A stretch of DNA of 64,000 nucleotides, from contig BCIN01000001.1 in the NCBI GenBank assembly GCA_039545335.1, positions 3,227,136 to 3,291,135 on the forward strand, in the 5' to 3' direction. The notes below the pieces were generated by a model. It was not told where the DNA came from. It made no database searches and saw only the letters and a program-made list of their open reading frames with translations. The number at the start of each line of letters is the position of its first letter. Position 1 is the first letter of the stretch. Positions 6,391 through 62,375 of this stretch are shown here, piece by piece. The DNA comes from Kondoa subrosea (lineage: Eukaryota). The position numbers and the translations under genes are program-made.

Positions 6391-8586
6391 ATGTATCTGA
6401 TCCTCGAAGGCCCGACAGGGTACCGACCGCCGCCAGACTACAATTATAATATAGCAGGTCTTTCAGATAGGAATTCATTCTTCCGATACTATTTACCTCA
6501 AACATTGGAGCATGTGGTGCTGTTGGATAATACCACCATATTTGAGATCACTCGGCAGATTGGCGGTATCTTCAATTGGGTCAAGCTATCTGTCGTTGTC
6601 GATCACCCCAATGATGCGACCTATCAGGCATTGCGCAATGCCAGAGCTCTTATGGCCCGTACGAGACGCTATCTACATGTTCTTCATCTATTCATCAATC
6701 ATAATCATCGATATACAATGCCGACTGCTGATGAATTCCACACGTTCGTTGTAAACCAAGCTACAAGATCCTCTTTGTTGGCTCGTGGATTTCATCCCGA
6801 CTCGCTTCTGATGTATCCGATGCTTCATCAAGCCATGCAAAACTGTGTCAAGCACCACCAGCCCAAGAATTTCTACGAATCCTTTATGTTTCTGACTAGA
6901 CGCCAGGTGCTCGAAACTATCGGCGGAACATTCTATCATAACATTCATCCGACAGTTCTGTTTCTTCTTGCCTCAGACGGCGGTTACTGCCATCTTGACT
7001 TTGATCAACAAGCGACTAGGGATGTTGATGCAGCAGAAGATGAAAATGTGCGCGAGTTGCTGGTTTCACAGAATAGAGACAGCTCAAACGATCAACAATT
7101 GCTGCCGTGGAATCGCTCAACCTTGTGCCGTCATATTCTCGAAGTTGCTTTAAATTCGACTACCGTCGTTCGCCTCTCGGACACAAAGTATTACCGTTTC
7201 TCGAGCTCATCCGCTCGCGATTCGCTGAATATGGCAGAAACTTATATTGCAGCCGGCACCCAGATTGAGACCGCGAATACGCAAAATCGGCGCAGGCCAA
7301 TGCTCTGTGCGCACTTGTTCTTTGAGGCAAGAGATGGAAAGCCGAGAGGATTCCTTGGAGCGCAGATCAAGACACAGAATGAAGCAATGAAGTGCGTTTC
7401 AAGATCTGGCGGAGAACAGTTTAGTTTCTGTCCCGGCGAGTATGTTTCCTCTCTGTCCCTCTATTGGTCATCAGTCTAAGGCTTGAGCAGTATGCTCAGT
7501 ATATTCGAGACTCATCCAGATAACCAGAATTCTATAAGTCATCGGGCAATGGTGGCTTCTCATCCTACAAGCAGGGCGGCCGCAGATATGCTTTGCTTTT
7601 CTCTCGATGGGTGGTCGGGTCCTAGAGGTTCTCTTCAAGTGGCTCCCATATTCAGTGTATCGCATTGGATGCGGACCTTGGTAATCTCTCAATTCCGGTT
7701 TTGTCGTGTGGCTAACAAAATTGTAGGTCTATGTACAAGTCTACCGCGCACCTTGGTTTCAGCACTACTATGCGCGCGATTCTGACCAACCCACTGTGCC
7801 CATTTGGGACGACCAGCAATTTGCAACATGTCTAAGTACGTTGCAAGTTGCGTCTCAGCTGTAACACCCTAAAGCAAAGTCCAAACAGACACCATGCTTG
7901 TCCCGCACAGACCGCCGCCGCCCCCGAATCGACCACAGACAAGAGTACACGGCGAATTGCCTGACACAAGTCATACTGTGCCGCCAAATCAGCTACCTTT
8001 TGCTTTTACCAGTGAGCGCAATGCAAGAGAAATTCTCATGAGCTGATGACTATGCAGCAACGTCGCGCACGCCCCTGCCAGCAATCTATCAGGTGCATCC
8101 AGCAATGTATCGACCACCGTCAGCTGCTAGTGTTGCTTCGTCTCTGCATAGATCGACATCACACCCAGGTCTGGCTCGATTACACTCAATAGGTAAGACA
8201 ATCACTTAGTGTACATTGCGCTGTGCTGATGCTCGTAGTAGCGTCAGCTCGTGCACCACCGTCTTCCGCGCAAGATGACACTTTCGCTCACCGTACTCCG
8301 CACGTCACATCACCAGACTATTTCAATCGACCTATATTGCCTCACCTTCCGCAAGGACTGCCAAATGGCATAGCCGCACCTGTTGCGCGCAGACCAGGCC
8401 AGAGGACTGGTCTCCTTGTGAGCTTTCTGCCTACAGAACCTTTGTCAAACTGAGCGTACTGATATCTAGCCTCCTGGAGCATCGACTGTACATGCTGGTG
8501 TCACTAGGCCAGTAGTACATGAAGCTCCTTCGCCGCCGCGATACAACCTGAGAGACTCAGGCAAACGATTCAAATCAAAGAGATAG
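6391..8586 (+). CDS. Orphan/hypothetical multi-exon protein with Pro-rich C-terminal half
   Basis: ~350-codon first exon followed by GT-AG-bounded exons ending RDSGKRFKSKR*. TATA-like repeats at 6232-6250. Confidence 0.6.
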
Positions 8587-25924: not shown

Positions 25925-26231
25925 GACTTATGTCTGTCACCAATACTGGACACGAAGCAGCTGGATCCTGCAAGAACATTTATACACTTTCATTTCGATA
26001 CATCCACACAAGCCGCGGACACTCTACAATCATTTGTGTGCTTTAATTTATATATAGCAGTGCCCATAGTAGTATTAATGCAGTAGCTATCACTTCCCAA
26101 TTGCTCTGACACCTCGACGCGACTCTGATGATTTCTCGCCTCTTCTCAAGCAACGTCGAATACCTGAGCTTGGTTGTACATTTCACGACATAGATGCCCT
26201 CATAACGAATATACCCCCTTTCAGCCTTGAG

Positions 26232-29200: not shown

Positions 29201-30399
29201 ACATGGTACGGTATCGCTAGGCTGCGCAATGCGAAGTAGCTAATGGGCACACAACAAACAGATGAAATAATTTCTGCTGAATTGGATGATCCATCAGTCA
29301 CCAATTCGCCCGGCCTGCCGCATCATCACGATACTCGACCTCTGTCAGAAAGTCCAACTGAACACCGTGCAATATCTCACGCGGCTGTTCCACGTGAAAA
29401 ACCTTCCTCTCATCCTCCTCGACTATTAGAAACGGTTTCACCTAGAACTCTTGATAAAGAATGGTCAAAGACGGCTCTTGCTCCTGGGACAGTCGCAGCC
29501 CGAACCAAAGCTTTTGAAGAGACAATTGCAGCTTCAACCTCACCTCCGTCCAGTCTCTCCCACATTTCTCCTCGACCAGCCAAAGTGGACTTGCCCAAAA
29601 GAATTCGAGCAAGAACGGAAAGTATAGATATCAAGCCTTCCTCAAATCTTCTACAAGTAGTACGGCAACATCGAAAGAGTCGTTCTCATTCTCATAGCGC
29701 TGATCTGACGCATCTGTTCGAGAATTCAAGAGACAAGACCGAAGCTGTAGTAGAGATCAGAAGTTCAGATCCGAAAGCTGCAGCAAGAGTAGCAGCTATT
29801 CTCAAAGTCCACCACGATTTTGTGGCTCAAGAACCAGCAGCCATAGCAAGTCGACATGATCATTACCGAGCGGAATCGCCAGCGCTAGATGGTCTACTTC
29901 GAGAGGCTGAAGTGTCTGTCATCTCTGAAGTGGACCAACTTTCGTTGTCGAGAATGAGAAACTCGCGCTCCCCTCGTCCTTCGATCATTCCACCTCATCC
30001 TGTCAGAAATTTCAATGAATGGTCCAAATCAGATTGGAGGAAACTTGAAAGTATATTGAAAGATGCTCAGAGACAGGCTTACGAGGAAGCTGTGGATCAG
30101 CCAACTGTGGAGAGTGTAGTCGATGACTTTATCGAAAGTGAGAACCTGGAAGATCAGGATCTTGTTGGTCACTGGCAAAGGTGCGCTTGCTGTTCAAATG
30201 TTCTGCATTCGACTTATGTCCAAGGTCCAGAGCCAAGCTTGAATTTCGTGTTCAAGCTCTACTCAAGACTCGTTGCCAGCCTCGACTTCTTGCATTCCTG
30301 GATTCGCCTTCTGGCTCGCCTGTCCCTTCTCATCACTCTCGCGCTTCTTCTGTTGCCTTTTCAGCGTATGATGGACCGGAAACCGTTAAGCGCGACTGA
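26232..30399 (+). CDS. Large Ser/Pro/Glu-rich, mostly disordered hypothetical protein (~1300 aa)
   Basis: ORFs 26232-29243 and 29243-30409 joined by short introns. Basic NLS-like N-terminus. Compact C-terminal motifs VVEIRSSDPKAAARVAAILK and WSKSDWRKLE. Confidence 0.75.
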
Positions 30400-30601
30400 C
30401 GAAAAGTGACGTGAATTATATGTATTTGTATATCTGGGTTTCTGTGAATATTTATTGAGGGTAACTAGATGAACTATACGATCACGACTTTGTACGATGC
30501 CTTTACTGGGTGGTTAATAAGTTAATGCTTTTACGGCACTACTTCCTCTTGTTATTCTTCATTATCCCACGCAATCTAGATCGAATCTTCACCTCCGTGC
30601 A

Positions 30602-32802: not shown

Positions 32803-34086
32803 CTAGGGTCTTGCGCGTTCACTGGAGTCTATCTGAAGTGAGTAAAAAGCTGAAAAGTGATGCCTGGAAACGGCAGGACTCATTTTAAATTCGGATACGG
32901 TCTCGTTTCCTTGCTTGTCGAAGTATCTTCCGCAAGATTTCTTGTGCTCTAGCTTCCAATCTGCAGCTAATTATCAGCCATTAACACTACCAAGGTGTAA
33001 TCAGAACAAAGTACGATCCGATTGACATCGCTTGTTGCAATAAAGACCAATTTTGCAGTAAGCGCAACGTTTCACCGACTCTTTATTGCCGAAAGTCTTC
33101 GCGCAAGAAAGACATACATACAATTCAGGCTGTCTGTTTCCCTTAACAATTTCGGCGACGGTCTTCTCCTCTGAGGAATTGGGTAAGACCATGCCGCAAA
33201 TGAGATTAAACCGTTGAGAAGCTTTCGGTCTGGTCGACAGCCCTTTGGGAAGATGATAGTCCATAGTGTAGGATATGGCAAGGAGTAAATTGACGAGATC
33301 CGGTAAGAGTTGTGTTCCAACTGCATCGGCAACATACTTGGTGATGTGCTGTTGAGGCTTTTGGGACATTGACATAAGATAGGCGGTGAGCATAGAAATA
33401 CCAAAGGAAAGGGATGGCCAGCTTGAATCTCGTAGGTCTGGAAAGTGAAAGAGGATATCCCATACTGCCGGCCTTCTTTGCCCTATCACACAAACTACCG
33501 CTAGAATACTGTGGGCATGTACAATCATCTGAGCCCACTGATCAGTATACATTTGTAGCTTGTCCATCTTGAGATCAGAGGGGATGTGATACCAGATGAG
33601 CTCTTTGAGACTCATGAGAGACAAACGAACGTATTCGACAAGCTGACTTTCTGGGAAGTGCCGGAGCTCCATCGTATCCATACCAATCAGCGAAAGATAG
33701 CTGATGGCAGCGCAAAGATCCATGCGCTTGTCGAATGAGGGAGCCAGTCTGATCCTATCCAACATAGACCAGCAATGCTGCATCAATAACGCGTAAGATT
33801 TACAGTCGGCCAGGATTAGGTGAATGAGGAGGTTGTATTCCGCTCTCAAGTCGCAATCCGTTGATTTGTATACCAGAATGTGACCACAAAGCGTCAGCAG
33901 ACCTTTCTTGTCGCCCTTTGCCATCGCATCCACTAGATAGCTTTTCCAAACTTTGCCTGACTTCAATCTCATGGACTGTTCTGCCTCGCTGCAATTGGCA
34001 ATGTAGGATGCCAGTAATTGAGCATCCAGGCGAGGAGAATTTGAGACTTGTGCAGAGTCTGCTGGTCGCGCTGCAGAGGCAGCCAT
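32803..34086 (-). CDS. MYND-type zinc finger protein
   Basis: CLSC..RCAYCKIGLYCNKRCQSD|HWKLEHKKSC. Confidence 0.85.
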
Positions 34087-34386
34087 ACATCCACAATTCA
34101 GAGAGTATAGCTGTATGAGCTTCGCAGCCTCAAAAGTCTTTGCGCGTCCAGAAGAAGATTCGATTCGTGCTATTGTTGTCTTGCAAGTGCTTGTCTAAAT
34201 AAGACACTTAGCATATAGCAGGAACACGATCAATGTACGGCCAGGGAGAAAGCTGATTCAGTCGATGACAGATTCACCACTTCGCGATTATCAAGAGAGA
34301 GCGAACGAAAATGGATCTTGAGAAAGCCTATGTTCGATTACGTAATATGGCCTAGCATGCAACTATACTGTCATACTTGCGCGCAG

Positions 34387-42146: not shown

Positions 42147-43047
42147 CTAAAGTCTTGGTTTGCTCGTTAGCGAACTTGTCTGCTTTTGTGGGAGTTGAGC
42201 AATAGCACGTTTTCGAGCAGCTACGTAAGCTCGAAGTTCATCTCGGAAACTAATCGTACAACGTTAGGTAATGAGATAAAGAACGAGATGAGACCATACG
42301 CTACAATTCCAGCAGAAAGAGAACCAGTTTCACGAATGTTGCTGAATAATCTGTGTCGAAAAATGTTGATGCATCAGGAACAAGCCTGATAGAGACATCA
42401 TTTTATCGCACCTGAAAGCTGCATATAGCGATACTAGCCAACCGGTGACCATTAATCCAAGTAAAGCAGCACCAGAAAGAGTAGCAAGCAGAACCAAAGT
42501 AGCTCTGTGTGCGTGCGCGATATGCAAATCAGGGCAAAGCTGAACTGAGCATCGCGAGACACACCCTCCAACGATGATAGAGAACCAGAACAGTACAAAG
42601 GCAAGGGAAGAACCCAACAGAGCCAGAGTAACGAAAGTAGCGAAACCGGTAAAGACCAGTAAAGGCATTAGAGCGAGAAAGAAGAAGATAGTAGAGAAGG
42701 TAGTTGCAATGGGAAAAGATTGGAAAGAGTGAATGTACTGCATCTTGAGCGGTTGTAGAACTGCACAGTCAGTCATCCTTACGTCAGATTTCGTTCAACC
42801 GTGCATGAGAAGACTAGCCTTTGTCATTCGCGCTGTCAAAAGATCAGATGGGATCCATTGCGTGAATAGAGCACATACTCATTTGATTTGCTGTAAAGGT
42901 AGACTTTCGCATCTTTCGAATTGCATAATCAGCCTTCGCGTCAAGACAACCCCGTAAGGACTGACTAGCAATCTCTTGAGACAAGTCTCTACCACCATTC
43001 TGCTGCTGCGTGTAAGTGGCTAAGCCAGTCTTCTCTTCGAAGGACAT
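42147..43047 (-). CDS. Promethin/LDAF1-like hydrophobic hairpin (lipid droplet) protein
   Basis: Short exons join in frame from MSFEEKTG to an ~80-residue uninterrupted hydrophobic stretch (FFFLALMPLLVFTGF...). 3' end uncertain. Confidence 0.6.
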
Positions 43048-43090
43048 CTTTTGGATGTTGGAGAGCAACGTCCAGATAATAGTATACCTT

Positions 43091-43730
43091 TGCAATGGCC
43101 TCATGACAGGATGACACATACCCTAGATCCATCCACTGTTAGCTCATACCCGCCAACAAGCAGGACCGTCGAACTAGGTCCTCTAGAGATACTTCGACAT
43201 CATAAACCTACAGATGTGATTCGAGTTGAGAGGGATTATGCAAGTGGTGAAGGAGTAGTTCAATTCTGGTCTGGCTATCCTGTGGAATTGGAAGGCAGAG
43301 TTAGTGAACGCGACAGGTGCATGCGGTACAACACAACCTGAGAGCGAAGTTATCAGATCTCTCCTTCTGATTGGGCTACTCTCATGAATGATCTCAACAC
43401 CATCTTGGCTTCAGCTTACAATCCTTACAAATCAATTATGGATAATACTATAGCTATCTTGACGTTATATTTGTCAACTTGGTTGCTAACTTCGCATTAT
43501 GACAAGGTGCGCATGACTACTGACTTGCATTGTAGTATGCTGAGCGTGAGTTGTGAGTACAGGAGATGAAGCGCTTCGATGAACGAGTCTTTCAGGCAAA
43601 TGCGATTTTCAACCTCAAAGGTTTGAATATCCTTGATCCACGAAAGAATGCCTTCCTCTTCGTAAGAATAATGCTTGAGTCATTGCGCTGTAGCTCATCC
43701 ACTATTCAGCTGGAGATCGAATACTATTGA
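43091..43730 (+). CDS. Erf4/Golgin-A7 family (Ras palmitoyltransferase subunit)
   Basis: IRVERDY..QFWSGYPVELEGR|ISP..MNDLNTIL..LTLYLS..KGLNILDPRKNAFLF|LEIEYY*. Confidence 0.85.
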
Positions 43731-43923
43731 TCTATTGAACTATCCTTTTGTCCATGCTTTCATCGAAGCATATCAAGAATCAAGCGCGTATAGTGAAGCA
43801 TCGGTATACCCTTTCGTAGAATGACCAGCATTACATTGAAACCTAGTATAAATACAATGCGCTAAATTTTACACCCAATACAATAAATGATACATTCCTC
43901 AATTGATCAAAAAGGATCAAAAG

Positions 43924-46900
43924 TTAATCCATTTCCTCTGATTTCCTCTTCTTCTTTTGCAACCTCTTCCTCTCCTGGATCCTGACCGCGCAATCATACA
44001 GCTTTCTACATGTCTTATTATCAATCTCATCAATATCTAACGTTATTGTTGCGACACCATTCTAGAAACAACGACTCTTATTAAAATCTCCTTCGTGAGG
44101 TTTGCAAGGAGGAACAACTCACAGGTACCAGATCAGGTCGACAAGCTTTGACGACAAGAATGGATTCCTCAATTTCAGTTTCATTCAAGGAAGCCAAGAT
44201 ATTAGCAAGTAGTTGCTTTTCCGCCCAGGTCACAATCGTATCCTCTTCTTCCCCTGCCAAAGGTTCTGAAGAAGCTACAGTGTCAGAGCTAGGAGGTGTA
44301 GAGGAAGTTGAAGTTGTCGAAGAAGCAGAAGAGGAAGAATTGTCAGCAGAAGGAGAAGGAATAGATTGTTGCGATACAAAAGCGGAAAGTTTCTCCAAGA
44401 TAGCAGAATCCAGCGTTCCGGCATAGATTTCACCAATAGGTAGATTCTACCCATTCCAGTATAGGATCAGCACTTGAAACAACCAGAACTAAGAAGCGAA
44501 ACTTACTTCAGATAAGAAAGGTCTACTTTCTCGAACAATAGCCAGAGCTTGTCGTTTCTGAGTGTTATCGAGTCGAGCGAGATCTCGAGCTAATTCAGCT
44601 CTCTGCAACCAGGTGATAGAGGAGGCAGCTGGAGTCACTGAGATCAAAGGAAGTTGAGGAGAGGTCGAATTAGTCGTCGTCAGCTGAGTTGTCGGCGAAG
44701 TACCTGATGTGGCAGCAGCTGTAGTTTCAGACGATACAGGAGTGGTGGAAACAGATTGTTTTGAGGTACTTTGAGCGGGATCGGACGAAGGAATGGAAAC
44801 TTGCATTAAAGAAGATGAGATATATCTCAAGGAAGAGGCTACAAGAGTAGCTTACCTGGTGAATCCGGCTCCTTCTCTCCATTGACTATTCTTTGCAATT
44901 TTGGGTATCCTTCTAGCAGTTTAAGCGCGATTGTAGTACCTCCTGCACCAGAATCAGCTACGAAGAGATGTAAAACTTATGCGACGTACCTAGTAGCTTG
45001 ATGAGACTATCAACTTTATGCCTCGTCTTGTTTGAACCATCCAGAACGCATTTCATGCTCTCACATTGTGCGCACGCTTGGTCCGGACACATATTGATAG
45101 CTGTTCTCCATTTCATTGTAGGTTGTGCATTCAAAATTTTATCTCCAACAAACTTCTTGCGAATGACTAGCATGTAAGACAGCTCGGTTTCTCTGGTTTT
45201 GAGCGAAAGTTTGCCCGCATGAAACAACGGCTGTAGACTTGACTTGACACGAGCACGAGTAGTATCATCCCTTCTGATTGTGAGATAATGGCGAACGGGA
45301 TCTTGCAAGAACGAGTTAATGTCGAAACTCTGTTCCCGGATATTCTTTTCGAGAGGAGGCAGCGAAAGATCTAATGGAGCTTGATTCTTTTGTCCAGAGT
45401 ATAGCTCGACCGTCTGCTTGAGTGTCTTTCGGGCCAATGTTGCGAAGGCAGGATGAGAGAAGGTAAATCCGTTTCGATCTACAATGGGTTGCAGAGCGCT
45501 CAGGAGACTCAAGCCAAGAGAAACAGCATTGGATGGTCTGTACCGGCCAAGTAGCTCAGAGACCAGTTCAGCCTGATGATACCGCAAAGCAAAATCGACC
45601 AAATCCACAACTTTCTATAGGTCCAATGAGCGATAATACGAAATGTCTGGTATCAACACTTGCCTGTAAGAGGAAGGGATTTATGACTGTATCACTTGCT
45701 GGAGGCCAAACGAAACCGGTTGTCAGACGCTGTAGTTCGTAATCGAAGAAGGCAATGACTTCGGGCAACAGCGTGGAACGTTGAGTCCGATCCGGATTAC
45801 ATCGTAAAGCCTGAAGAAGGCGAAGTCGATCAGTGGAGTCGTTAACTGGAGATGCGTTGATGATTTTCATCTCTACGATAGGCCACCCAATGACTTCCAC
45901 TACAGAAAGAAGATCGCTGATATCGTATTCCTTAACATGTTTGGGCCAGAGATGACAAATTTGTTCTGCGCAAAAGTCTACGATGCGGGCGGGCATTTGT
46001 TCAGCTTGGACCAGACTTCTAGTCAGTTGCACAACCAGTGCTCGGAGAGAATGCCACGTCTGATCTTCTGGACGGATGAGACTGTTGATTTTGCTGTATA
46101 TCTGCGCCAAACTGGATATTCGATGAAGCTAATTAGTCTCGTCAATCAGTCTCGTCGAATCAGGCCTAACATACAAAGGAAAGGCAGAATCTGACTGCAC
46201 TCCCTGCACAGCATCTACGATCAGCGGAATAGATGCCATCGTGAGAGGCTTTCCGGCGATGAGAGTAAGCGATATGTCGGTGAGATACTTCTGGGCGCAA
46301 GGATCATCTTGGTATAACAACCTGACTTCTCTTGATATTGCAGCAAAAGAACCAGATGAGTGCTCGTACGCGACGCTTGGATTCGCATGTCGTGAATATG
46401 AAGGCGTTATTGCATGAGCCAAGACTGAATCGAGACTGTGCAAGCTCAAGCATTAGCGAAGTCTTCCTAGGCTCTGTAGAAACTAACATCTTGCGACTAT
46501 CCGCAAAGTCTAGACCTCTAATGAAGCCAATAGCTATTTCAAGATCTTCCTGCCTGATGTGCACGCTCGACAGGAGCTGCACAGCGGTTTCAAAATTAAC
46601 ACGAGACAGCAGCACAGAAGCGCCTACATTGAGCATCTGCTGATTTGACCAATCCTGCAGCTCATTACTATCTTCGAAAGCATTGCATAATTCCAAGAGA
46701 AAAGTGTAGGCTTCCTTGATCACATGTCTGTTCGTGTTGTCGGCAGAGTGACTTTGTTGAGACGGTCTGATCTGTTGCATTTTTTCCAGGTTGGTGGAAA
46801 GGCTGAAGAAAAATTCATGAGAGCGGTGCTTAGGTAGCGTAACACACTTACTGAGATTTCATTGAAGCAAATCCGAATTGATGCACTGCAGAAATCCACG

Positions 46901-48619
46901 CATAATTTGATACAGCTCGATGACACTGCAATACCTCCAGTACCGCGGAAAAGAGTTCAGGATACTTTGATACAATAGCTGCTTCGATGAAAGTACTGGA
47001 GCAATGTATCCGAGCTAAGAGTGAAGGTGTGGTCCTGATGGTCGATAGTAGCTGAGACTCTGATCCAGTAGCGTTCGCGGTGGGTAAGGACGTACGCCTT
47101 TGAACCTCCTCCGCGACCAAGGCATTGACTGTTTGATCGCTGCCGTATTGCAGAGACATTGAAACGTCTTCTGACATTGGCCATAATATCACGACTGCAC
47201 GAGTATAGTAGTGACGCACTCCATTGCGGTCTCCTTCCCTTCGTTCAAATGCAGGTGCTTTCTTCATGGAGAATGACGGAAGGAAAGCAGACGTTTTCAA
47301 CTTCAATCCAGAAAATTCGAAACGTCTGCCATCAGCCCTTGTCATGTCGGCCAATTGATACGCTATTGCAGTACCCCGAGCCATTTCGTAAACACGATGT
47401 GGAGCTAATCTTCGACAATTGATGCAGCTTCCGTTGACGCAACGCCAATTACTGCAAGCGTAGACTTGATCTTTTGCTGGTCCACTTATAGTAATATTGA
47501 CTTTGCCAAGAGCTACGCATAAGCCCAGATCTTTGGCAAGAACTTGCAAGACGTCGACTTTGGGCTTGAAATCATGTTCAAGTATGTTGAAATCAGGCGC
47601 AGCGTAACATTGATCTTCCGACAGTATATGAGCGAGGATTTGAGGCGCGCTTGGGTTTGCTTCTCTTCGACTTAGCCATATTTTCAGCTTCGAAGCGAGA
47701 GTGTTTGCAAATTGAGAAATCGATGGCGCTCGAGGTATCGAAGAAACTTTGCCTGTCCAAGTTAGCATGTATTCGAGAATTAAGCCAGCTCCAGAAGTGA
47801 TTAGTTCCTGTGATTGTTTGACACCATGAACTATAAGGCTTTTCAGCTCGAGACATTCATCTCAATGATAAAGCTTACAAGCAGAGCTGTAAGAGTACCG
47901 GAAAGCCGAGCTACTTTGTGGTGTGATTGTCATAGATCTTTGCTCATGCTCTGAATAAGCGATAATTAGACATCAGGGATCCGATGCTTCGAAGGCTTTC
48001 GCTCACCCATGAGCAAATTACCACCTGAAAACTTTGTAGGCAGGAAGACATTGACGATCGCTACAGTAGTACTGCTCTTGGTTGTTGCTGCGATAGGTAA
48101 TTGACTCTTGACAAGAAGGAGTTTTCGAAACAGAAGAAGACAGGAAGAGGAATCGATTTCAAGACCTTGAGCCACCTGCGTCTTGAATTCACTGTTCATG
48201 TACGTGCGAAATTCAGCGTTTTCGAAGACCACTTTGCCAGAATCGAAAGCAAAGACGTCGGCCGCTGTTTGACTGGTGATGTACTCGATACATCTTTGAC
48301 TCAGAGGAAGACCGAAGGAGCCTAAGTCCTCTATCGCCAGACCAGGATTCGGCGGATTCAGAGAACCGAAAGAAAGGAAGGGTTTTGTATTAATTGACGC
48401 AAACGATTGCAAGAGATGGGCGACAGAGATTGACCAAGCAGTCTTTCCAAACTTATCAGCCTGCCAGATAGAATCATCCGCTTCTTCCTCCGCTTCTGAC
48501 ACTTGATCCAGATATTCACTTTGCTTGACCAATTCATCTGAAGGCAGCATGGACTGGGGAAGAGTCTTGCCTCCTATTGTTGGCCTCTCTGCTTTGTCCT
48601 CGTCCATAGCTGAAGCCAT
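43924..48619 (-). CDS. Degenerate 2OG-Fe(II) oxygenase-like protein (copy 1) with two C-terminal BET extra-terminal (ET) domains
   Basis: Family motifs PNPGLAIEDLGSFGLPLS, FLPTKFSGG and YTRAVVILWP. In-frame splicing leads to ITWLQRAELARDLARL..|..LDSAILEKLSAFV and VTWAEKQLLANILASL..|..ITLDIDEIDNKTCRKLYD. Confidence 0.7.
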
Positions 48620-48967
48620 TGCAGTTAAAATGAACGCGGTTCGAGCGGGAGAAAACCCAGGATCCAGAAAAAACAAACAAGTCATAAATCTCTAGCGTCT
48701 CAGAATTCAAGGCAATCCAATGTCAGTCTCATCAGACAAGTGGTATCTGCGAAGAAACGCGTCTAAATGTGTCCAATACTCGCGCATTAGGAATGATTAC
48801 ATAATTTGGTTACAATGTGATGATGCGCTATCTACAGCCCTAATACAGTACGTACACTTGTGTCTCTCCGCAGTTCGTAAAAAAAGTAAGGAATTCGGAT
48901 GCATCGCTTGCAAAGGCGCGTCGATCCTTTAGGAAGTTCGAATAATAGGCCAAGTTGTTGGACAAGT

Positions 48968-51900
48968 TCATTGGCGCGTAGCTGTCAATTACATGTGCTC
49001 AGAGAACGAATCACACACGGTTCAAACACAACTCACAATCTGCTAGCGAAGCATTGGGTACACCGGTAAGCATAGCGATCAAAGCAGGTTCGCCTGCAAG
49101 CAGGTCCAATGCTACTTTAGCGCCACCTGTTCGAGAGATAAGGATCAACCAGAAGTGACACACAACAAGCTAACCAATAATTTTGACTAATTCGTTGACT
49201 TTGGCTCTCCCATCTGCTCTTGAGATGGTCAATTTTAGAGCTTGACATTGACGACAGCTCGATGTAGCGCAAGTAGCAACAGCTGCCTTATAAATCGATA
49301 CCTGATGAGGATCGAGGTTATCGTCGGTGCGCAATGCTTTGTGAGCGTTGTGTATTTTCTTCCGAATAATTAGTGTATGAGGTGACCGTCCCTTGACTGT
49401 TTCCGTGGTGATGAAACCCATACGGACCAGGTGGCTAACAGCCTTCTCGAACCTTGTTCGTGCCGCTTGAACTGCGGAAATACGGACACAATGTTCTACC
49501 GAACTTCGAAGAAAGTCATTGAGGTTTATTCTTCCCTCGATAATATTGGTTGGTACACCGGCAAGAGCCATATTCAGCGGAGATGAGGTAGCCGGTCCCA
49601 AGAATGTTCTCGCACTCAAAGAGAGCGCTTTGCGTGCGAAAGTTGCTACGGGTGCCCGAGTGAAAGGACATGTGTGGGCTTCCACGACTGGCCGAAGAGC
49701 AAGTAGAAGTGGTTGACAGATACTTGATAGATCGCCTTGATTACTGGGAGCAAATCGACCGAGTAGATTTGCTGCCAGCACAGATTTGTGGTTTCGCAGG
49801 CAAAGATCAACGAGCTTCACCAATCTCTGTTGCATATTGTAGGAAATGCAGAGAAATACATAGCTTGTGACTCACCGTAACATTCACAGATGTTGCATCT
49901 GTATTCAGAGCATGTCTCCAATTTACACCAGACGGTGCCGACTTCCATCCAGGATCTGACACTGGCGGCCAGACATAAGAGGTCGTAAGGCGCTGTAATT
50001 CCGAATGGATGAAAGACAGCATGTTTTGATCTACGCTTTCACCAGCCACAGAAATTGCTTTATTTTGAAGTTCTTCAAGCAGAGGCAGGCGATGATCAAG
50101 TCCCAATTGGAATACTCGATTGATGACTTTCGCTTCCACAGAAGACCATCCAAGGAGATCAATCAACGCTAATAAATCATCGAATTCCGTGCCAGTTTGA
50201 ATTGAGTTCCATAGGGAAGCAACTTGAGTGGATAGAAAATTTGCCATATCTGGATCAGAATGGAAGACTTGCATGAGTTCTGCTGTGAGCTTGACACCCA
50301 AAGTCCGATGTGTTACTGCTATCGAAGGATTCGCACGTGCTTTCTGCCCAATTTGGCGATATACTTCTTTGAGACTGAGGAGCAGCATTCAGTCATCGTA
50401 AGGAAGTATAATATGTTCACTTACAAGCCGATACAATTTTCGAGCGGCGAACCAGCAACACTCTGAACAATGTCGGGAATAGAAGAAGCTTCAAGTTCTT
50501 TTTTCGCTAGCAGTTGTTGAGTCATTGACCGGAGATAGCTTTGCGCGTCCATATCATGATTGTAGAAGGCTTGCGCTTGTTTCGCCAGCTGGAAAGCGGT
50601 AGAAATCTGTTCCTGCTCTGGCGATTGTGTGGGACGCGGACCATACTGATGGTGCGGCTGAGCCACGGTCGGCGGTGTCAAAGCTCGAACGAAGACCGAG
50701 TCCAAGCTTTGTCAGGGTCAGTCAGCTGAGCATACTTTTAAGTTGAAGCAGGAACGCACATTTTTCTGCTGACATCGAAATCTAAGCCTTTGATGATGTC
50801 TATAGCTAAAGCCAGATCTTCTGTTTGCAACTCTGCTGCAGCCAGCACCTATAGTTCACGTTAATCCTTTCTCGCTCTCATATGGGGAGCATTGACCTCA
50901 ATCATAGCCGAACTACACCAATCTTGGATGTCTTCGCTGGCTTCCTCAAAAGAATTGCATAATGTTGTAAGGAAGGCATAAAGGCTTTTAACAGTATCTT
51001 TCTTCTTTAGCTGATGTCTCGTGGTCATATGAAAGTACGTTGGTCCAGCCGACGGAAGAAGCATAAGTTGCACGGCTTGATGTAAACTAAATACAGAGCA
51101 ATCAGCATCGATGTTTGAAAGAAGAAGAGAGTGATTTACTGATTCTTGACAACATTGAAGGTGAAAGTGTCGATCGCTTGTGTCCACAGCGCTTGCTTTA
51201 TGTTCGGATGGCACTTCGATCGCGACAGAACCTGATCAAATAAAGCGAATCTTCTCCCAGCTAAAGAAGCCTCCAACAAGGTTTCGCAACATCCAGTACG
51301 AAAGGAAATGTCAAAATGGTGGATATTGTCCAGCAGATCGGAAGCTATTTCGCCTTCAGTCGAGTCTCGGATGCTGAGAATCCGTGCAGTCTCTTGCTTG
51401 ACCATCTGATTGATTGCCTCGTCGGAAGAGCTACTGAGCATGATCTCGAGGTCCTCTTCAGCTGGCCAAAGTAATACGATAGAGCGGTAGAAGAAATGCT
51501 CAACCTCTTCTGAATTTGAAGATTCGTCGTCATATTCCGGTGGATCTACAGGGAAGCGAGGATAAAGGTTATCACCATCGAAATTGAGAGTTTTGAGATC
51601 AAGAAGCCTTCCATCCATTTTAGAAATGCCTTCTAGAGTATACGTTCTCTCCTGCTCTTCTGCCATTTCATAGACTCGCTCTTCCCTTGCCTGCTCGCAT
51701 TGATAACAATCGCCGTAGCACTTCCATCTTCCGCAACCCTCGTCGTCGTCGCCATACCCATATCTATCTTCCGCTGGACCGCTGATAGTCACTTTGAGTC
51801 TGCCAACCGATATTTGAAAACCCAGGTCTGAGGCCAAGGAACTGAGATAGTCGACTTTTATCTTGGCCAAACCTTGCAGATCGTGAAAGGTAGGTGACTG

Positions 51901-52911
51901 CACGCAATATTGTTCCGATAACATATGACCAATGAATTGAGGTGCATCACCAACTTCATTTCGTCGCACGATCCATTGCTTCAACTTATCGGATAATTCA
52001 AGCATTCCTGATGACGCTACTGGCGCTCGGGGAATGCTTGTATCAAGCCCAGTCCATTCGAGAGCGTATTGCAGACTCAAACGAGCACCGGAAGTGATTG
52101 GCTCTTGGTGACGTCGAAGTCCAGAGTCTAGTATGAAGAATATGGGTTTTAATAAGATTTGCGAGCATGATGAGCAGAATATGATGACGTACAGGAGCAC
52201 TCGTAAGCTGATCCAAAGGCAGAATTCTGCTGACAATCGAAAGTGATGGTTTTGCCTTGATGTTCTGCTCACCGAGAGAAACATCATGCACAGGTCGACT
52301 TTGCGCCTAGAGGACTCACCAACTGATACAGATCCTCCTGAGAACTCAGTCGGGAGGAAGATATTGACCGTAGCGAAGAGCTTGGGCTGCAGTTCACCTT
52401 GGGGTGTTGTTGCAGTACCGCGTTGCAGCAATAGTCTTTGCAAAACTAGACGACACAAAGATTGATTACATCCAAGACCATTCGCCAGTTGTGGTAGCAG
52501 ACGCGTTATTACCCATTGACTAAAGGCTTGATTCCGAAGCTTGATCTTGTTTGCGCTAAACACGCAGGAATTGCTTGCGCTACTTTGTGTAATACGATCT
52601 ACGTCTCTTGCACTCAATGGCAGTCCAAACGCGCCTAGATCTTCGCCCTCAAGCTCCAAGCCAGGATTCGGCATGTCCTCTAAATTGCCATTACACGAGA
52701 ATTTGCCTTGTACAGCAGATTCGAAAGCTGTGTCCAGTAGCTCCGATACTTCTTCTCCCCAAGGTGTATTGCCTTCATCGTCCTCGGTCCAAGGTGCGTC
52801 TTCATCGTCCGGCGCCTCTTCCCCTTGATGCCGCGGAGGAGGCATAGCCGCACGAGCTGCCATCATTGCCAATTGCTCTCGCGGAGTCAGCTTGTGCAGC
52901 GCAGCGGCCAT
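48968..52911 (-). CDS. Degenerate 2OG-Fe(II) oxygenase-like protein (copy 2)
   Basis: PNPGLELEGEDLGAFGLPLSARD, FATVNIFLPTEFSGG, EPITSGARLSLQYAL, FYRSIVLLWP and TETVKGRSPHTLIIRK. Collinear with copy 1, including intron positions near the 3' end. Confidence 0.78.
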
Positions 52912-53135
52912 AGGTTCCCTCAATTATCGAGAGCAAGAAGAAAAACAATGTGTAATTTCGGACTTGTCTTGAATCAGCCGTGTCGACTAACAGGGGTCTA
53001 CACTGAGTGTATACCTAATTGTGTCTGTGAATTGGTACCGACGCGACAGAGCATTTGTGAAGCTCGAAGCAAGATTTATGTGGTTCGAATGAAAGAATAG
53101 AAAGGCCTGTGACTCAAAGTCTATACCCTGCTATC

Positions 53136-56100
53136 ATGTCTGTGACCTGCATCTCGAAGATACTGCAAGCAAGCAAAAGAGAAGGCAATGGCTGGTCCAA
53201 TGCAACAGAAAATGAAAGACCGCATCATTTCGGACCAAGTGTCGCTTGTGAGTACTCTTACTGGATGATCAGTGCCGTCGTAATGATCCTAATCTCAGCT
53301 GTAATGGGTCAAATAAAGTCTTCAAGGGATGTCTCGCAGTTCTGTCAAGTTATCCTCGATACACCTAGTAAGTTGTCAAATTTCCAACTGTTGAGAAGCC
53401 TCATCTTGCAGTGCCAGGATACCAGAGACCTTCAGATACTCTTTTGTGCTACGAATCAGCTATACCTACCTTCATTCAGATGGCATCACATTGGCCAAAA
53501 GACAAGTACTCTCCTGCACCGCGACCAGTCTTCGATCTCGTGCCTACATCAGAACCAGGCTTTAGGGCTTCTGTAGTCCTTCCTAGACTATCATGGATAA
53601 AAGATATGGAAGTGAGACGTCTAACCGGACCAATTCTACCCACAAAGAAGCTCGCTCGTCAAGGTATGTACTAGCCTCGCTTTGCACAGTGCGACGCTCA
53701 AGAGATTGACAGCTATAGCATTCTACGCCTGTAGAATAATGCATGCCTGGGCAGCGCCTCAGCATGTGTTTTCCGACAATTATGATCCTGATTCTCCGTC
53801 CAATGTTGATCTTACGGCGGACAGCGAAGCAGCAGATCTGTCGCCAGTCGCAGAAGAACATGCAAGTATCTTTCCTAACCCGTTTGGCTTCCTGCAAGAT
53901 CCGACTGAACGTCTATATCTACACAATCTCCGCTTTCTTTTCTTGGATGGCTCATCAGAACATCTCGGTATCATCACTGCGAACAGGATTCAATCTGCTA
54001 TGCCATTTTCCCTGAATAGTCCTGTTCTTGCAAGTATGGAACTTGTTACATCTGTAGAATTGCAATGGCAAGGAGAAGAACGACTTGAACGGTTACAAAT
54101 CTGCGAGAGCTTCACTAGAACAGTAGTACAAGTCATCCTCAATCGTAGACCCACAGAGACGCCATTCTTTCACTTACTTGTTCCTCTTTTGCCAGCAGAA
54201 CCGCTTGAAATTGACTGGGAAATCGCAGTGACACCTTTCAGCCCGCTGATTGACTCTTCTACCATCACAGAAGGTAATCTTATCGTCGTCCCTTTCTCCC
54301 GCATGCTTGTTTCTCGCTTGTTTACTTGGAAGGAATGCCGCTCTGAACTTTCAATGTCGAGTCCTTTGTTAGAACATCACCCAGTCAAGCACAAGAAGAG
54401 ATTTTGGGATTATCAAGGACTTTTCATGGTTGTCTATCAGTTCACAGACCTCCCTTCCGATGATCAGCTTATTCAGCTTTCACCTATTCTTGATCTCACA
54501 GCTTCTTTCGCCGAAGCCAAGATAGCAAGCACTAAAGAGACCAGGGATGAGATTGTGCCTTTCTCAAAATGTAGAAGCAGCAAGCTTTCGTGGAAATTCC
54601 TGCAGGCAGTACATTCTATGCCAACTTGGATCAACAATCTTTACACCGCAGCAAGATCGCAACGAGCTGTAGAATTGCTGAATTTACAGCGCCTGGACCC
54701 TGTTTTCGCTCAAATGGCTTTGACTTTACCTTCCTGCGGGACAGGAAGGGATTACGAAAGTCTGGAAACTCTAGTGAGAAATCAAATCCCTATTCAGAGA
54801 ATTCTGTATTTCTGACGACGTATTGATGTTATAAAGGGCGATTGCTATCTGAAACTTGCAGTATCAGTTTATGAATATCAAAGATACCCTCAAGCAGCTG
54901 AAGGCGTTCTAGCAATGATGCGAACTCGAAGCACCGATAACCAATTCTTGCGCAAGAAAGCCATAGAGCTAGATCTAGCTAGTCATATCATGACTGAACG
55001 ATTCCAGAACAAGACTTGGATCCCTTCTTCTATCGAGTGAGCTTATTTTGACCGCTTTCAATCTTCAGCTGCCAACTAAAGCTTGCTATGGCAGAGAAAC
55101 GCAATTGCTCGAGCAAGGTCGAAGATTGGAACGCGTGGTACCACGAAGAGCACTATCAGATTGTATTGAAGCTCTGATTGGTGCGGGCTGGTTGAGCGGC
55201 ACAAACGATATCGCACTTGAAGTTGGTCATTCTCTCAAGATGTGTTTTGGTGGATCTACACCGTGGCACAAAAGACCGATCGCACTTGCAAGCAATGCTT
55301 TATTAGCCTGTGACTCAGCTCTGGAAGTAAAACCCTTAGAAGTAACCCTCGGCTACAGCTTTCGTAATGCAAAATTGCTGCAAGAGGCTCTTTCACATCA
55401 AACTTGGGCTATCTTGCGTCCTGATGAGCCTACGTATGAAAGAATGGAGTGAGTGAGCAGTGCAGACAATACATTTGACTAATCTAGCTATGTAGGTTTC
55501 TCGGGGATGCCATTCTCGATGTAAGAGATATACTCTGTGTGATAACCGCTTTGGTGTACTAAATGTCACTTAGATGTTTGCTTCTGAATACTTGATGGAT
55601 TACTTTGGACCATTCTACATCACTCCAAGTCAACTAAGTCGACTCAAAGCGATCTGCGTATGCAATGGTACGGCAGCTTACTTATCGGTCAATCGTCTCC
55701 AACTACACAAATACATCAAACATGCAAAGCCTGAATTGGATATTATCTTTGCCAAAGCAGAAGAACAAGCCCGTCTACTACAAATTGACGATTTCCATGA
55801 GCACTGCTGGAAGTGGGAACCGCCGAAAGAGCTATGTGATGTCTTCGAAGCAGTCATTGCCGCCGTTTTCGTAGATTCGGGATACCGCCTGAACGTTGTC
55901 TTTGATGTTTTGCGAAACATCTACGGCGATATTATGACAACGTTGCGAATTGATGTGTAAGTTGATTGGCTTTATATCAAGAGCAATAGCTTATGCCATC
56001 CGCAGTGCTGCTGATCCGTGAGCTTACTAATACCGTTCAACGCTTAGCTGAATGAAACATTTTCATAGCGCGTCTCGATTGCGTGAATTTGTTTCCCGCA

Positions 56101-56683: not shown

Positions 56684-59543
56684 TCATGAAAGCGTTGATT
56701 CAGCTGCAACTTCTATTGCTGACTTTGCTGCTGGATTATCTGGCCTGACATTTCCACCTCCTCGTTCGCCAGCCGCTCTTATACCTATGCTGCCAACATT
56801 TGCGGTTCTCATTGGTTTTGGTGCACCAGGTTTAGACTTTGGACCAATACCAAAATAAATGGAGATCCACTCCCTAGCGAAAATTTCGCCGAAGCCTGAA
56901 AGGATAGCCATCAACGCAAGCCAGAACACTAGTAGGAAATCAAAACGAACCTAGCATGACTCCGTTGACAAAGGGTAAAAAGAGATTCACGCCCAGACTC
57001 GCAAGAATGGTGAAGACTCTTCTTCTCCAAGGCACAGACGGTGAATTCATGTTATTGAAGATAGACATAGTAAGGGAAGGCGCTTCAGGTTGTGGTCCTG
57101 ATGCTTGGGATTCTGGCATGACTTTGTCCATAAAATCGGGAAAGTCTGGTATAATGGGTTTCGACAAGTCTTCATCGGAATCGGAATCGTGCGCTTGAGA
57201 GATGCCTCTTCTGTTTGGTCTAGGAGTTGCATCCACGGAAACAGGTTCAGAGATGGACTTTTCGTTTGTAGAGGACGTGGAAGCTATTGATTGGGAAGAT
57301 GTGAACAGATCGTGAATAGGTGCGACTTTCGCAAGAATCGGTGATTCATCATCCGCTACACTTGCTAATGATATTGCTGCCATATCGTCTTCAATTGCTT
57401 GTGACGCAGCAGTAGATGAGTCAAGCGCAGTTGTGCCATCACCTTTGATAGCTCCCTTCACAGAGACTGGGGTAGGCTCTTCTAAATTTGGGTCCCAGTT
57501 CGCTGATATACGCGACATAGGCAGAAGTTCAGATGACCCTGCCTGCAGATTCTGTTGCGCTTGTACTGTTGCTGAGCTCTTCTTGGGAGTTTCTCGTAGA
57601 GGCTCGCCAGAAGAAAGTTGTAAATCCGGATCCTGCTGATCTTCTTGCACAGAGTGAGGTTCGGTGTCAGTAGTAAATGGCTGAGATGCGTCGTCTACTG
57701 GCTTAGAAGTATCTGCATGCAATTGAGAGGAAGGCTTGGAGGAAAGTTGCAAATCTGCGTCTGCTTGATCGTCTTCTACTGTTTTCGGTTCTTTAGTGTC
57801 ATTTGCTCCGTGGAGCGTTCTTTCAGACGACAGTTCCAGATCAGTGTCCGTTTGTCCTGACCTGGCAGAATGAAATGTTGCGGTGGTTGCAAATGATGCA
57901 GGAACATCGTCTTCTTGCTCTGGAGGAGAAGTTTGGAGGGAATTTGTAGATGATGAAGGAGAAAGATCAGCTTCGTTCTCTTGCATTGGCTGCGAGTCTT
58001 GAGCTGCTTCTGGATTTCTACTGACCGCTGGACTTTCTCGCGATGGTTCTCCTCTTGACAGTTGCAAATCTGCATCGGCATGTTCTTCCTCTACTGGATG
58101 AGCGGGTGTATCGGTTGTGAGAGGTTTGGCGATATCTTCTTCTACCTCCTTTGGCGATTCTTTGAGGTCTTCTGGATTGGCAAGTGACAGATCCACATCC
58201 GCATCCTCTTTTTCTTCAGATTCCTGCTCCGCTTCAACAACTTTCGGACTTTCCCTTAATGGTTGACCGGAAGATAGTTTTAGATCTGCATCCTCTTGTT
58301 CTTCCTTGACTACATGTACTTCTGCATCGTCCATCAAAGGCTTGCTGATATCTTCTTCTTGTTTTGCTGGTGGATCAACCAGAGAAGAAGGAGCAGCAAG
58401 TGTGAGATCTTGATCTTCCATCTCATTCGTACCTTGTTGTGCAACAGTTGAAGTAGTTGGATCAGAAAGTGAAAGAGAAGTGAAAGATAATGACAGGTCA
58501 GGATCTTGATCTTTTACTTCTGTACTAGTCACAGCGGTATGACTAGTTATGAACGGCGAAGAAGCGTCTTCTGCTGGTCTGGCGGGCGGGTCAGATAATG
58601 AAGAAGGATTGCTGAGTTGTAAATCAGCATCGTTTTCTTCATTCGTTTGACTAGTGGTCAATTGGTTCGATACAGGAGGTTCATCTAAAGGCCTGGAAGA
58701 GCTTGAGAGCGAGAGGTCAGGGTCAGTTTCTTGCTGCAGGTCAGTTTCCTCTTGCGATTCACTGGTGAATTTATTCTCGCTCGTGCTGTGATTTGAAAGA
58801 GAGACAGAAGCAGGTTGATCAAGAGACTTTCCAGATGACAGTGATAGATCAGCATCTGCTTGTTCTGAAGAGTCCTCACTCGGCTGCACTGAAGTATGAG
58901 AAAGTGTCGGATCTGATATAGCTTTTCCGCTCTTCACTGAGTTTCCTTCGGTTATAGAAGAATTGACTTGCGAAGACAAGGTTTCTACGGCAGGTTGTTC
59001 AGAAGATGGAACTGAGGAAGGCTGAGGCTCTGAGTTTGAAGCAACCGAAGGTACATCGAGTTCTTTTGATGCAGATGCCTCCATTTGTGGATCAAGTTCT
59101 TCCATTGTAGTGCTGACAGGCTGCGCGGCTTGATCAGATTCTGGAGCATCTTGCGTAGGTGAACTTTCTGAAACGCTATCCACAGGCCCTGGGGTAGGCT
59201 CTTCAACCTTTGGCTGTTCTTCAGTCTTGGAAGAAGAGTCCGTTGGCTGTTCTATGCTCTCTTTGACAGGTAGACGTTCAGGCGGACGATTGTCCTGCAT
59301 TTGCTCGAGCGCATCTCCATTGACAGGCTTGGATTCGCTTGACGATTCAGATGTGCCCTATACGGGTAGTGAGTGTTGAGACTAGAGACATCAACTGCAG
59401 GCTAAGCTCACATTCTCGCTTTCATCATGACTTTCTTCAGCTTTGTCCAATGCAGCGACCTGTTGGCCCTTCTGTTTCTCTTGAAGCTCTTTTATCTGAG
59501 CTGCACTTGGCCTCTTCTTGTGTTTCCTATGGACTGTTGGCAT
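56684..59543 (-). CDS. Mim1/TOM13 mitochondrial outer-membrane insertase domain preceded by an ~800-aa acidic repetitive extension
   Basis: C-terminal SLGVNLFLPFVNGVMLG|FGEIFARE is the Mim1 signature. The upstream 786-codon ORF is in the same frame with no stop, and a first exon MPTVHRKHKK splices in frame. Confidence 0.75.
57580..58870 (-). repeat. 12 degenerate protein-level repeats with core D[A/P]DL[S/Q/K]LS
   Basis: DADLSLSSG, DPDLSLSS, DADLQLSN, DPDLSLSF, DQDLTLAA, DADLKLSSG, DVDLSLAN, DADLQLSRG, EADLSPSS, DTDLELSS, DADLQLSS, DPDLQLSSG. Confidence 0.85.
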
Positions 59544-60522: not shown

Positions 60523-62375
60523 ATGCTTTTGAATGCAACGAGGAAATTCTTCTCTGGTGTGGTTAAAGGATTGAAATCGCCTGGTACCAGCAGCGAAGGG
60601 CTTGATAGTGAGAGGTTTAAGAGATCTGCTTCGGATGATTCGGTAGAGCAGGAACTATTGGATGAGAGGCCCGGTAAAAGACGCAGAATTGAAGGTAAGG
60701 CAATCAAGCATTTCATTTACAGCGCTATTTCCTGATATTTACGTCCTCAGATGATCAACTCTCTACCTCGTATGATAATGCAATGGATCCCTTCTTGTCT
60801 CGAGTAACCCAGAACCTGCTTGCCGCACAATGGCAGAACAAGACTATCTTCAGAACCTCTACCTTCTTCTAGTGCTTCGGTCAAAAAGAAGAGTCGCTTC
60901 GTAGAGCACTTTGATACGCTCAAGAAATCTGATCAAGCAAAGATTGCTCAGCTGGAAGCTCAAGTTGATCATTTGCAGAAAGAGGTATGTCCATTCTTAT
61001 CGCACAAAGCTCATCTGACAGTATATCATAGCTCGGATCAAAGCATGTACATTTCGCTGCCACACCCAAAAAATCTCGAACATCGATCTCCTCAGATTGG
61101 ACACCTGTCAATCGACCTCTAGCACCTTTCCCACCACCTCCTTCTTCCATTTCTAAGCCACCTACTGGCAAACCTATCAACAATTGGGAAGAAGCGATAC
61201 AAGGCGCACGTGCTAAATTGAGAGAAACACCTTCCCCAGTACCAGAAACGTCCACTCGAGCAACATGGGCAGCTCGAAAGAGTGCTTTGTCCCATGTGCC
61301 CTCAGCAGCGATGGACAAGTTCCTTAGTGAAGTCAAGACCATCAAGCTTCGGAAAGTAGCAAAGAACGAAGCGAAACGAGAAAACGCTACGGCAGCTGCC
61401 AATCGAGGTCGCATCAATTTCTCATTACGCAAGAAAGCAAGTCAGCATTCTTTAGCTGCTAGTAATGGTCAAGATAATCCGATCGAGGCATGGGAGAACT
61501 GTACCTTCACTTTCAAATCACCTAGTCCTGTTGCAGCCTTGCTAGCAAACAAAGTACAGCAACGTCCATCCACAGTCACTTATGGTCGAGCAGTATCTAC
61601 TAACAGTCCTTCGCCTCCAAGAAACTCACCTAAGATCGAAATCATCTCTGCTACTTCTCCCATTCGCTCACCAATTTTACCTGAATTCAACTTCGGTCAA
61701 GCTCTTACCGGTTCTCCTTCTTCTTCTCATACAATACCTGCTGGAAAACACAGTATTGTGCCAGGGGCTTATGATGGTCTTCCAGCTTTAGTTGCGAAGA
61801 AGAATCGAGAGATGGAAAAAGCATTGCCTGAACCTCCTTCAGCCGAAATCTCTACTATCCCTTTCCCTCGAATGGATCCTGTCCCTTCTTCTCCAACTAC
61901 TCAACAATCTGTCCTGGAGGAGCAAGAGCCTATACCTTTTCCGTCAATGGATGATTCACCTTTCTCCCTTACCAGAAATGCATACGTTCATCCTGTTTCA
62001 GCTGGTCTACCTACTTCAAACACCTCGATGGATATCGATCAACCTTCTTTACCTCTCCCTATGATCAATCTTGTTGAAGCTGTCGCAGCTGGACTTCGTA
62101 GCAGGAAAAGATCCACTGAAATTCTCAAGCTAGAAATAACCAAACCTATCACAGCAAGACAACAGACTTTGAAGAAGAGGAAACGAATAAGTGAATCGTC
62201 CGTCTCATCTTTGGAGCAGGAGAAGGAGAACGAAAATGGAAGAGCATCAGGAGCAATCTCGGAAGTCGTCAAAACGGAAGATGAAGAGCTTTCGGGTTCG
62301 GGTACAAAAGAGAAGTTGGCTGATAGAGTTATTGGATATGGTTTGAGCCCTCTTTTGGATGCGCAAGGACGATAA
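60523..62375 (+). CDS. Hypothetical low-complexity protein with a short coiled coil, Pro-rich tract and WH2-like KLRKV motif
   Basis: Three exons (introns at ~60695 and ~60985). KIAQLEAQVDHLQKE, PFPPPPSS and MDKFLSEVKTIKLRKV. Confidence 0.7.

Follow-up and report, generated by a model that had tools for sequence, protein, structure and literature searches.

Two Bdf1-like ET domains predicted at the end of a degenerate 2OG-Fe(II) oxygenase-fold protein in Kondoa subrosea

To our knowledge, extra-terminal (ET) domains normally occur once per protein. Two accounts describe one such module per chain, on a protein that also has bromodomains (BET) or a YEATS domain (PMC7442819; PMC10451976), in plants only beside bromodomains (PMC10451976). 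Their ligands are short peptides in which hydrophobic and basic residues alternate, and which pair with a strand between helices 2 and 3 (PMC7442819; PMC5701133). In BRD4 this strand is E651-I-E653-I-D655-F-E657, its acids being E651, E653, D655 and E657, and E651A/E653A weakens binding of NSD3 and JMJD6 (PMC5701133).

The gene described here, copy A, is predicted to join two ET domains to a degenerate oxygenase, and it resembles each of several described systems in part. With BET proteins (Bdf1/Bdf2, BRD2/3/4/T; PF17035) it shares the ET sequence, the intron of the resident Bdf1 ET, and the acidic lead-in before the ET and basic stretch after it, as seen around its second ET (ET2). Unlike them it is predicted to lack a bromodomain (none in a Pfam scan of the long exons of A and of its paralogue, copy B), and it carries two ETs rather than one, with an altered ligand strand, on an unrelated 1100-aa body. 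As in the YEATS-ET proteins (Taf14, Sas5, AF9, ENL), the ET would be a docking module on a non-bromodomain N-terminal domain (PMC7442819), but a Pfam scan of the exons found no YEATS domain, and the ETs of A trace to a BET-type donor, not to the YET subtype. Its body is homologous to long fungal proteins with PF13640 (2OG-FeII_Oxy_3; e.g. TFK65122.1, KAK0189105.1, TCD68473.1), which bear a low-complexity tail with a basic cluster and are named 'Prolyl 4-hydroxylase alpha subunit Fe(2+) 2OG dioxygenase domain-containing protein'; A differs from these in its lost iron triad, a deleted loop, an absent C-x-C-x2-C motif and the presence of the ETs. PHD2/EGLN1, PPHD and OGFOD1 are active enzymes, and the fold likeness to them, which comes through the model of a homologue (P0006), covers the oxygenase domain only. 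BRD4-ET with JMJD6 also sets an ET beside a 2OG oxygenase fold; that pairing is non-covalent and involves an active JmjC enzyme (PMC5701133), whereas A is predicted to be a covalent fusion with a dead prolyl-hydroxylase-type domain.

Copies A and B are tandem paralogues on the minus strand of the window, by which we mean the whole 64,000-nucleotide stretch analysed, and have the Ssl1, promethin and Pil1 genes among their neighbours. The genome (18.9 Mb in 27 contigs) has short, spliceosomal introns. A is the downstream member, with the ET exons at its 3' end. The two copies are 33% identical across 1125 aligned positions, and all nine introns of B are matched in A by position and phase. Genome searches with the long frame of B and with P0006 returned copies A and B only, counts that are lower bounds. 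The predicted features are as follows.

43924-48619, minus strand: copy A, 12 predicted exons and 1367 aa, an open frame once 11 introns (47-63 nt) are removed; in order, pseudo-2OG oxygenase, helical body, C-terminal alpha/beta domain, linker, ET1, linker, ET2, basic tail.
47760-48355, minus strand: pseudo-2OG-Fe(II) oxygenase domain of A, about aa 90-253, spanning introns 1-2, edges approximate.
44800-44855, minus strand: A intron 9, the joint of oxygenase body and ET exons, 56 nt, GTAAGC..AAG, phase 1, with a branch-like word CTCAT 17 nt upstream.
44804-44806, minus strand: in-frame ATG in the 3' end of intron 9, a possible start of an ET-only gene, with T at -3.
44618-44799, minus strand: linker 1, Ser/Thr/Ala/Pro-rich in translation.
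44375-44617, minus strand: ET1, aa 1178-1238, exons 44617-44507 and 44446-44375, ligand strand degenerate.
44506-44447, minus strand: ET1 intron, 60 nt, phase 0.
44234-44374, minus strand: linker 2, Ser/Thr-rich in translation, ending in an acidic lead-in that resembles the one preceding the Bdf1 ET.
43984-44233, minus strand: ET2, aa 1286-1348, exons 44233-44123 and 44061-43984.
44122-44062, minus strand: ET2 intron, 61 nt, phase 0.
43924-43983, minus strand: basic C-terminal tail in translation, with KKKRK, a likely nuclear localisation signal, then the stop.
43926-43924, minus strand: stop codon of copy A.
48968-52911, minus strand: copy B, 10 predicted exons and 1155 aa after removal of 9 introns; no ET, low-complexity tail or basic cluster, triad lost, 2OG-binding Arg kept.
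48982-49036, minus strand: B intron 9, phase 1, the counterpart of A intron 9, with four codons between it and the stop.

Two further introns of A stand out. The one at 45663-45615 (minus) is GC-AG, where B has GT-AG at the same position. The one at 46627-46577 (minus), 51 nt, in frame and stop-free, was recognised only through the matching intron of B; its donor score is low (2.5), so partial retention is possible. A gene runs in the opposite orientation upstream of B, from 53061 onward (plus), and a Pfam scan of 53625-54812 found no match. A repeat search over 42500-54500 returned short paralogue matches and chance pairs, and no signs of a mobile element. Elsewhere in the window, long open frames at 2100-4091, 4233-5570, 6250-7479, 14333-16183, 26079-30409, 33001-34194 and 61032-62375 have no Pfam match at E <= 0.001, and an 805-aa frame at 56940-59357 has just a short TOM13 match at its end.

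The sequence-only reading of this DNA had proposed two ET-like units after a Ser/Thr linker, and the ET peptides it named all occur there on the minus strand. Homology to the ET of the resident Bdf1 bears the proposal out: spliced ET2 is identical to it at 27/62 positions (BLASTP E 6e-10, z 22) and spliced ET1 at 19/61 (E 3e-4, z 12.8), and shuffled sequences equalled neither score (0/2000). The ET2 match begins at aa 1279, in the acidic lead-in of linker 2, and the Bdf1 match also extends into the basic C-terminal tail of A. Helical core positions are kept in both units; the ligand strand has drifted. The Pfam BET profile, to which the same reading had pointed, agrees in part. Two of the four unspliced ET halves match, namely the second half of ET2 (E 1.1e-4, 22.7 bits, profile 42-60) and the first half of ET1 (E 0.034, 14.7 bits, profile 3-36), neither reaching the 24.5-bit cut-off alone, and the unspliced second half of ET1 and first half of ET2 gave no match; both halves of the Bdf1 ET exceed the cut-off (30.3 and 33.2 bits). 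A half-ET profile compared with the alignment of the PF13640 family returned a probability of 0.2, which argues that the ETs are not a diverged portion of the family body. Searched against PDB sequences, the last exon and three-row half-ET profiles found no ET structures, only short chance matches (gp41, Arl1, Spo0F, flagellin), and the ESM Atlas gave no usable match to the first half of ET2. Word-index protein searches with B exon 3 and the first half of ET2 were empty, as was one with the first half of the Bdf1 ET as positive control, so these empty results carry little weight.

Across the whole genome the Pfam BET profile has three matches, of which two fall in separate exons of a contig-2 gene and the third in the final exon of A. 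We take the contig-2 gene to be Bdf1, with one ET and two bromodomain-like regions read from motifs in its translation. The intron of its ET is in phase 0, 37 codons after VTW, and both ET1 and ET2 are split at that same codon and phase, counted from their [IV]TW, as the sequence-only reading had noted for the two units; the first halves of all three align gap-free. Sharing of this intron with the Bdf1 ET places the capture at the DNA level, and a retrocopy origin was rejected because the intron is still present. Counted at first, second and third codon positions, ET2 agrees with Bdf1 in 28/36/22 of 57 cases and ET1 in 25/31/20 of 56; second positions are kept best and third positions are near saturation, and the ET intron pairs score 12-16 against a background of 11.8 +/- 2.3 for unrelated intron pairs. 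This codon-position pattern, together with introns that align no better than unrelated pairs, suggests that the ET copies are old and kept at the protein level; as far as these alignments go, the pattern is one of purifying selection. The resident Bdf1 is the likely donor of both ETs: a piece of its DNA, ET and intron together, would have entered the tail region of A, where it is now present twice. ET1 and ET2 are identical at 15/56 positions, and to Bdf1 at 19/56 and 25/57 respectively. The sequence-only reading had taken the shared intron position to suggest exon-module duplication, but because the intron was inherited from Bdf1, sharing it cannot separate one capture and tandem duplication from two captures. 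Exon 11, phase 0-0, runs from the last part of ET1 through a linker into the first part of ET2, as would be expected after an internal duplication, and SIPS opens both linkers; the three ET sequences would fit tandem duplication or two captures alike.

HMMER with the first long frame of B had 350 protein matches at E <= 0.001; the best 150 of these, together with P0151, were scanned for domains (151 homologues, 74 of them at least 850 aa long). At E <= 0.01, PF13640 occurs in 77/151 of this set and BET in none; a three-sequence ET profile run against the best 150 of the 350 reached E 0.075 at best. The combination of ET and 2OG oxygenase, an architecture that the earlier reading had taken to be new, is thus absent from the 151 (best 150 of 350 plus P0151), and relative to the PF13640 family as sampled the ETs are a gain. 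The homology of A and B to the long PF13640 proteins spans the oxygenase, middle and C-terminal domains (C-terminal domain of B against P0006, E 1e-9), and in the Atlas placement of P0006 PF13640 stands alone in 29/30 clusters. Five named homologues among ten looked up belong to mushroom-forming fungi. Some of P0070, P0101, P0102, P0151 and P0043 have repeated oxygenase units or lengths of up to 2643 aa, and one of this group is joined to a protein kinase domain; such cases may be fusions or merged gene models. No second genome with the fusion was found among the 151 homologues (best 150 of 350 plus P0151) or in metagenome scans, where exon-1 and exon-3 alignments gave 219 and 562 pattern matches and 0 confirmed.

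The earlier reading had placed the gain of the ETs in one paralogue; A may have gained them, or B may have lost them. Copy B may be a 3'-shortened copy, since a low-complexity tail and a basic cluster, present in most long homologues, are missing from it, a judgement made on composition and the absent basic cluster and not on length. Among the 74 long homologues (from the best 150 of 350 plus P0151), 43 have a KRK/KRR/RKR cluster within the last 45 aa and 23 end the low-complexity tail in a VIDLT-type motif; we read the former as a likely nuclear localisation signal, and the latter, which in many members comes after the basic cluster, resembles a SUMO-interacting motif (SIM); these tail features suggest a nuclear role for the long PF13640 proteins. 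As for the basic tail of A, it may belong to the family or may have arrived together with the ET, given that the Bdf1 match extends into it. Exon 9 of A and exon 9 of B gave no alignment to P0003.

The closest relatives (P0001, P0002, P0004) are fragments on contigs of 2.3-2.9 kb. In a tree of the post-oxygenase domain (21 rows; 19/70 BLAST hits had sufficient length), A and B fall with two fragments in a single clade (100/99), within which A lies nearer the fragments than B does (96/89), its branch being about twice that of B (1.03 vs 0.48). An N-terminal tree (16 rows, from the first 14 long-enough hits of 119) supports a clade of A, B and P0004 (96/94) without support for its inner order, and an A+B clade is not rejected (p-AU 0.55), so the placement of A nearer the fragments rests on one region. 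The long branch of A fits a new function or relaxed constraint.

That the upstream domain of A is a pseudo-2OG oxygenase, as first proposed from the sequence, holds up: a profile built from homologues matches it with E 1.5e-34, indicating that the fold is kept, and its triad is lost. A Pfam scan of the exons found no PF13640 match in A or in B. In A the iron triad H-D-H is replaced by I-A-Q and the 2OG-binding Arg by Gly; in B the triad positions hold a gap, Q and R, with a His one residue later, and the Arg is kept. A loop of about 16 residues, conserved in active homologues, is missing from A, B and the fragment P0004. In the triad alignment (156 rows) the Arg is present in 129 homologue rows, and among the rows covering all four columns the HxD..H triad is intact in 76/116 and lost in 40/116, a share that may be biased because the query is itself a pseudo-enzyme. 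Triad loss at this frequency need not be tied to ET gain; on these alignments the pseudo-oxygenase state predates the gain, nor is it rare among family members. The genome seems to have no catalytically intact long member of the family, P0006 matching just A and B, and there are two other PF13640 matches in it (L010, L011). A further difference concerns the stretches 44991-45614 and 49176-49826 (minus): the C-x-C-x2-C motif of the family and the next His, presumably a zinc site, are absent from B where it aligns to P0006, while both copies carry a C-x4-C-x2-C motif in a later insertion, perhaps a metal site that has moved.

The AlphaFold model used for fold comparison is that of the homologue P0006, not of A (mean pLDDT 80.5, pTM 0.59). 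Its matches, confined to the oxygenase domain, are the Pseudomonas prolyl hydroxylase PPHD, PHD2 and OGFOD1 (E 1.5e-4 to 1e-3), with TM values by target of about 0.45-0.57 for PHD2/PPHD and 0.22-0.24 for OGFOD1. No JmjC chain is among the listed fold matches of the model, and a JmjC Pfam match occurs in 0/151 homologues (best 150 of 350 plus P0151). The parallel with JMJD6, which the earlier reading had drawn from the binding of that enzyme by the BRD4 ET, does not hold: JMJD6 is a JmjC enzyme (PMC5701133), and on the model of P0006 this family folds like the PHD2/PPHD/OGFOD1 prolyl hydroxylases. The likeness is superficial, since on that model it concerns the wrong class of oxygenase.

In our alignment, which sets the register, the acids of the BRD4 strand are kept 4/4 in Bdf1, 2/4 in ET2 and 1/4 in ET1. 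ET2 has Thr at both positions equivalent to E651 and E653, and ET1 also lacks two large hydrophobic residues of the ligand strand. Strands altered in this way speak for ligand preferences that have shifted or weakened, more than for a close imitation of Bdf1. A helical core that is kept beside a drifted ligand strand would also be expected if the ETs of a fused protein had no outside ligands and instead packed on each other or on their own body, or self-associated. A does contain LKLKT (47306-47292, minus; aa 404-408), which resembles ET-binding motifs and is absent from B. This motif aligns inside the folded domain after the oxygenase, however, and motifs of its type occur in 7/74 long homologues without any ET (from the best 150 of 350 plus P0151), so that it may be there by chance; an acidic strand, moreover, is still present in ET2. 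We consider such self-binding distinctly unlikely.

Whether the ETs belong to A at all turns on intron 9. The splice of A into the ET linker, claimed from the sequence as in frame with the residues PG at the joint, keeps the frame when read from the DNA, but the junction is Pro-Val with no Gly, because the G preceding the donor opens the Val codon. The claim that B has an equivalent upstream intron (49036-48982, phase 1) and a stop four codons on is correct. Against a splice-site matrix built from the 26 introns predicted in this same analysis, the donor of intron 9 is strong (rank 6/26) and its AAG acceptor weak (rank 24/26); AAG acceptors occur in 3/26 modelled introns, among them Bdf1 intron 2 and B5, which sits at the position of A5. 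An out-of-frame AAG at 44769 outscores the acceptor (2.1 vs 0.3), and a CAG at 44719 is an alternative that preserves the ET frame; the AAG at 44800 is the only AG within the 47-65 nt range. Left unspliced here, both A and B reach a stop within a few codons. Past the conserved strand, A with intron 9 retained would have 98 residues, against 105 in B and a median of 115.5 in 36 homologues, so an ET-less A would have normal family length.

The three ET exons could accordingly be read as a separate small gene of about 255 aa starting from the ATG at 44806, with A ending inside intron 9 near where B ends. The in-frame ATG overlapping a weak acceptor and the normal length of an ET-less A both fit this reading, which we nevertheless regard as quite improbable: the stop of the intron-retained frame lies 34 nt from that ATG, compared with about 350 nt from the stop of B to the start of A, and would put the promoter inside the coding exons of A; the ATG has T at -3; and a strong donor is retained at the position and phase of B intron 9. 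Copy A is thus probably one fused gene, with the splice inferred from DNA alone. Retention of intron 9 would yield an ET-less product resembling copy B.

For a fused A we tentatively propose, at somewhat less than even confidence, a lineage-specific nuclear adaptor made of a dead oxygenase and two Bdf1-derived ETs, its binding and nuclear location both being putative; taken on its own, and granting the fusion, the adaptor role is slightly favoured. The dead double-stranded beta-helix domain and helical body would bind a client without modifying it, and ET2, with help from ET1, would dock on short basic/hydrophobic motifs of chromatin or transcription complexes. The changed acidic strands would give partners or affinities unlike those of Bdf1, with the second ET adding avidity. 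A bolder version, which we find rather doubtful, would make this tandem-ET adaptor on a dead prolyl-hydroxylase fold a third ET class beside BET and YEATS, conserved in a fungal lineage, in which the pseudo-enzyme reads a peptide mark, the re-tuned ETs recruit non-Bdf1 chromatin complexes, and intron 9 switches between ET-bearing and ET-less forms.

The sequence-only reading had offered 'chromatin adaptor or decoy', and of the two, adaptor is the best reading, if a tentative one. As a decoy, the fused protein would titrate the ligands of the Bdf1 ET and so damp Bdf1 function, and tandem ETs from the resident Bdf1, free of bromodomains and followed by a basic tail, are what such a role might use. 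A decoy would be expected to keep the ligand strand of its donor, yet ET2 and ET1 have lost acids of it as set out above, and ET1 two large hydrophobics as well; this weakens the idea, and we judge it decidedly improbable. A chance insertion of Bdf1 sequence, now functionless and decaying, might account for the long branch of A, the divergence of ET1 and the lack of another genome with the fusion; it is very improbable given that all three ET exons are open with intact GT-AG introns, and that codon positions show the graded conservation described above beside introns that no longer align. A still-active oxygenase domain, using an unusual metal site and brought by the ETs to chromatin substrates, would suit the retained fold and the binding of an active oxygenase in trans by the BRD4 ET (PMC5701133), but is scarcely tenable with three iron ligands and the 2OG Arg all replaced in A and the loop of active homologues deleted.

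A literature search covering titles and the starts of abstracts, few of them from subscription journals, returned no tandem-ET chain and no ET-2OG oxygenase fusion; supplementary tables of domain architectures may contain such a case. The wording 'two ET domains' does appear, a single time in PMC3798688 and again in PMC8578508; 'tandem et' appears once in PMC7641849, as well as in its preprint. On the sequence evidence the domain capture is real and well anchored, in one genome, and its architecture of ET with pseudo-oxygenase was not found in the searchable material. Because the likely donor gene, intron included, can still be recognised in the genome that carries the copies, it is a clean case of domain capture, and ET1, ET2 and Bdf1 ET together offer a natural series in which to ask how the acidic strand governs the choice of ligand. 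A nuclear function for the large, unstudied fungal PF13640 family is a further hint from the fusion.
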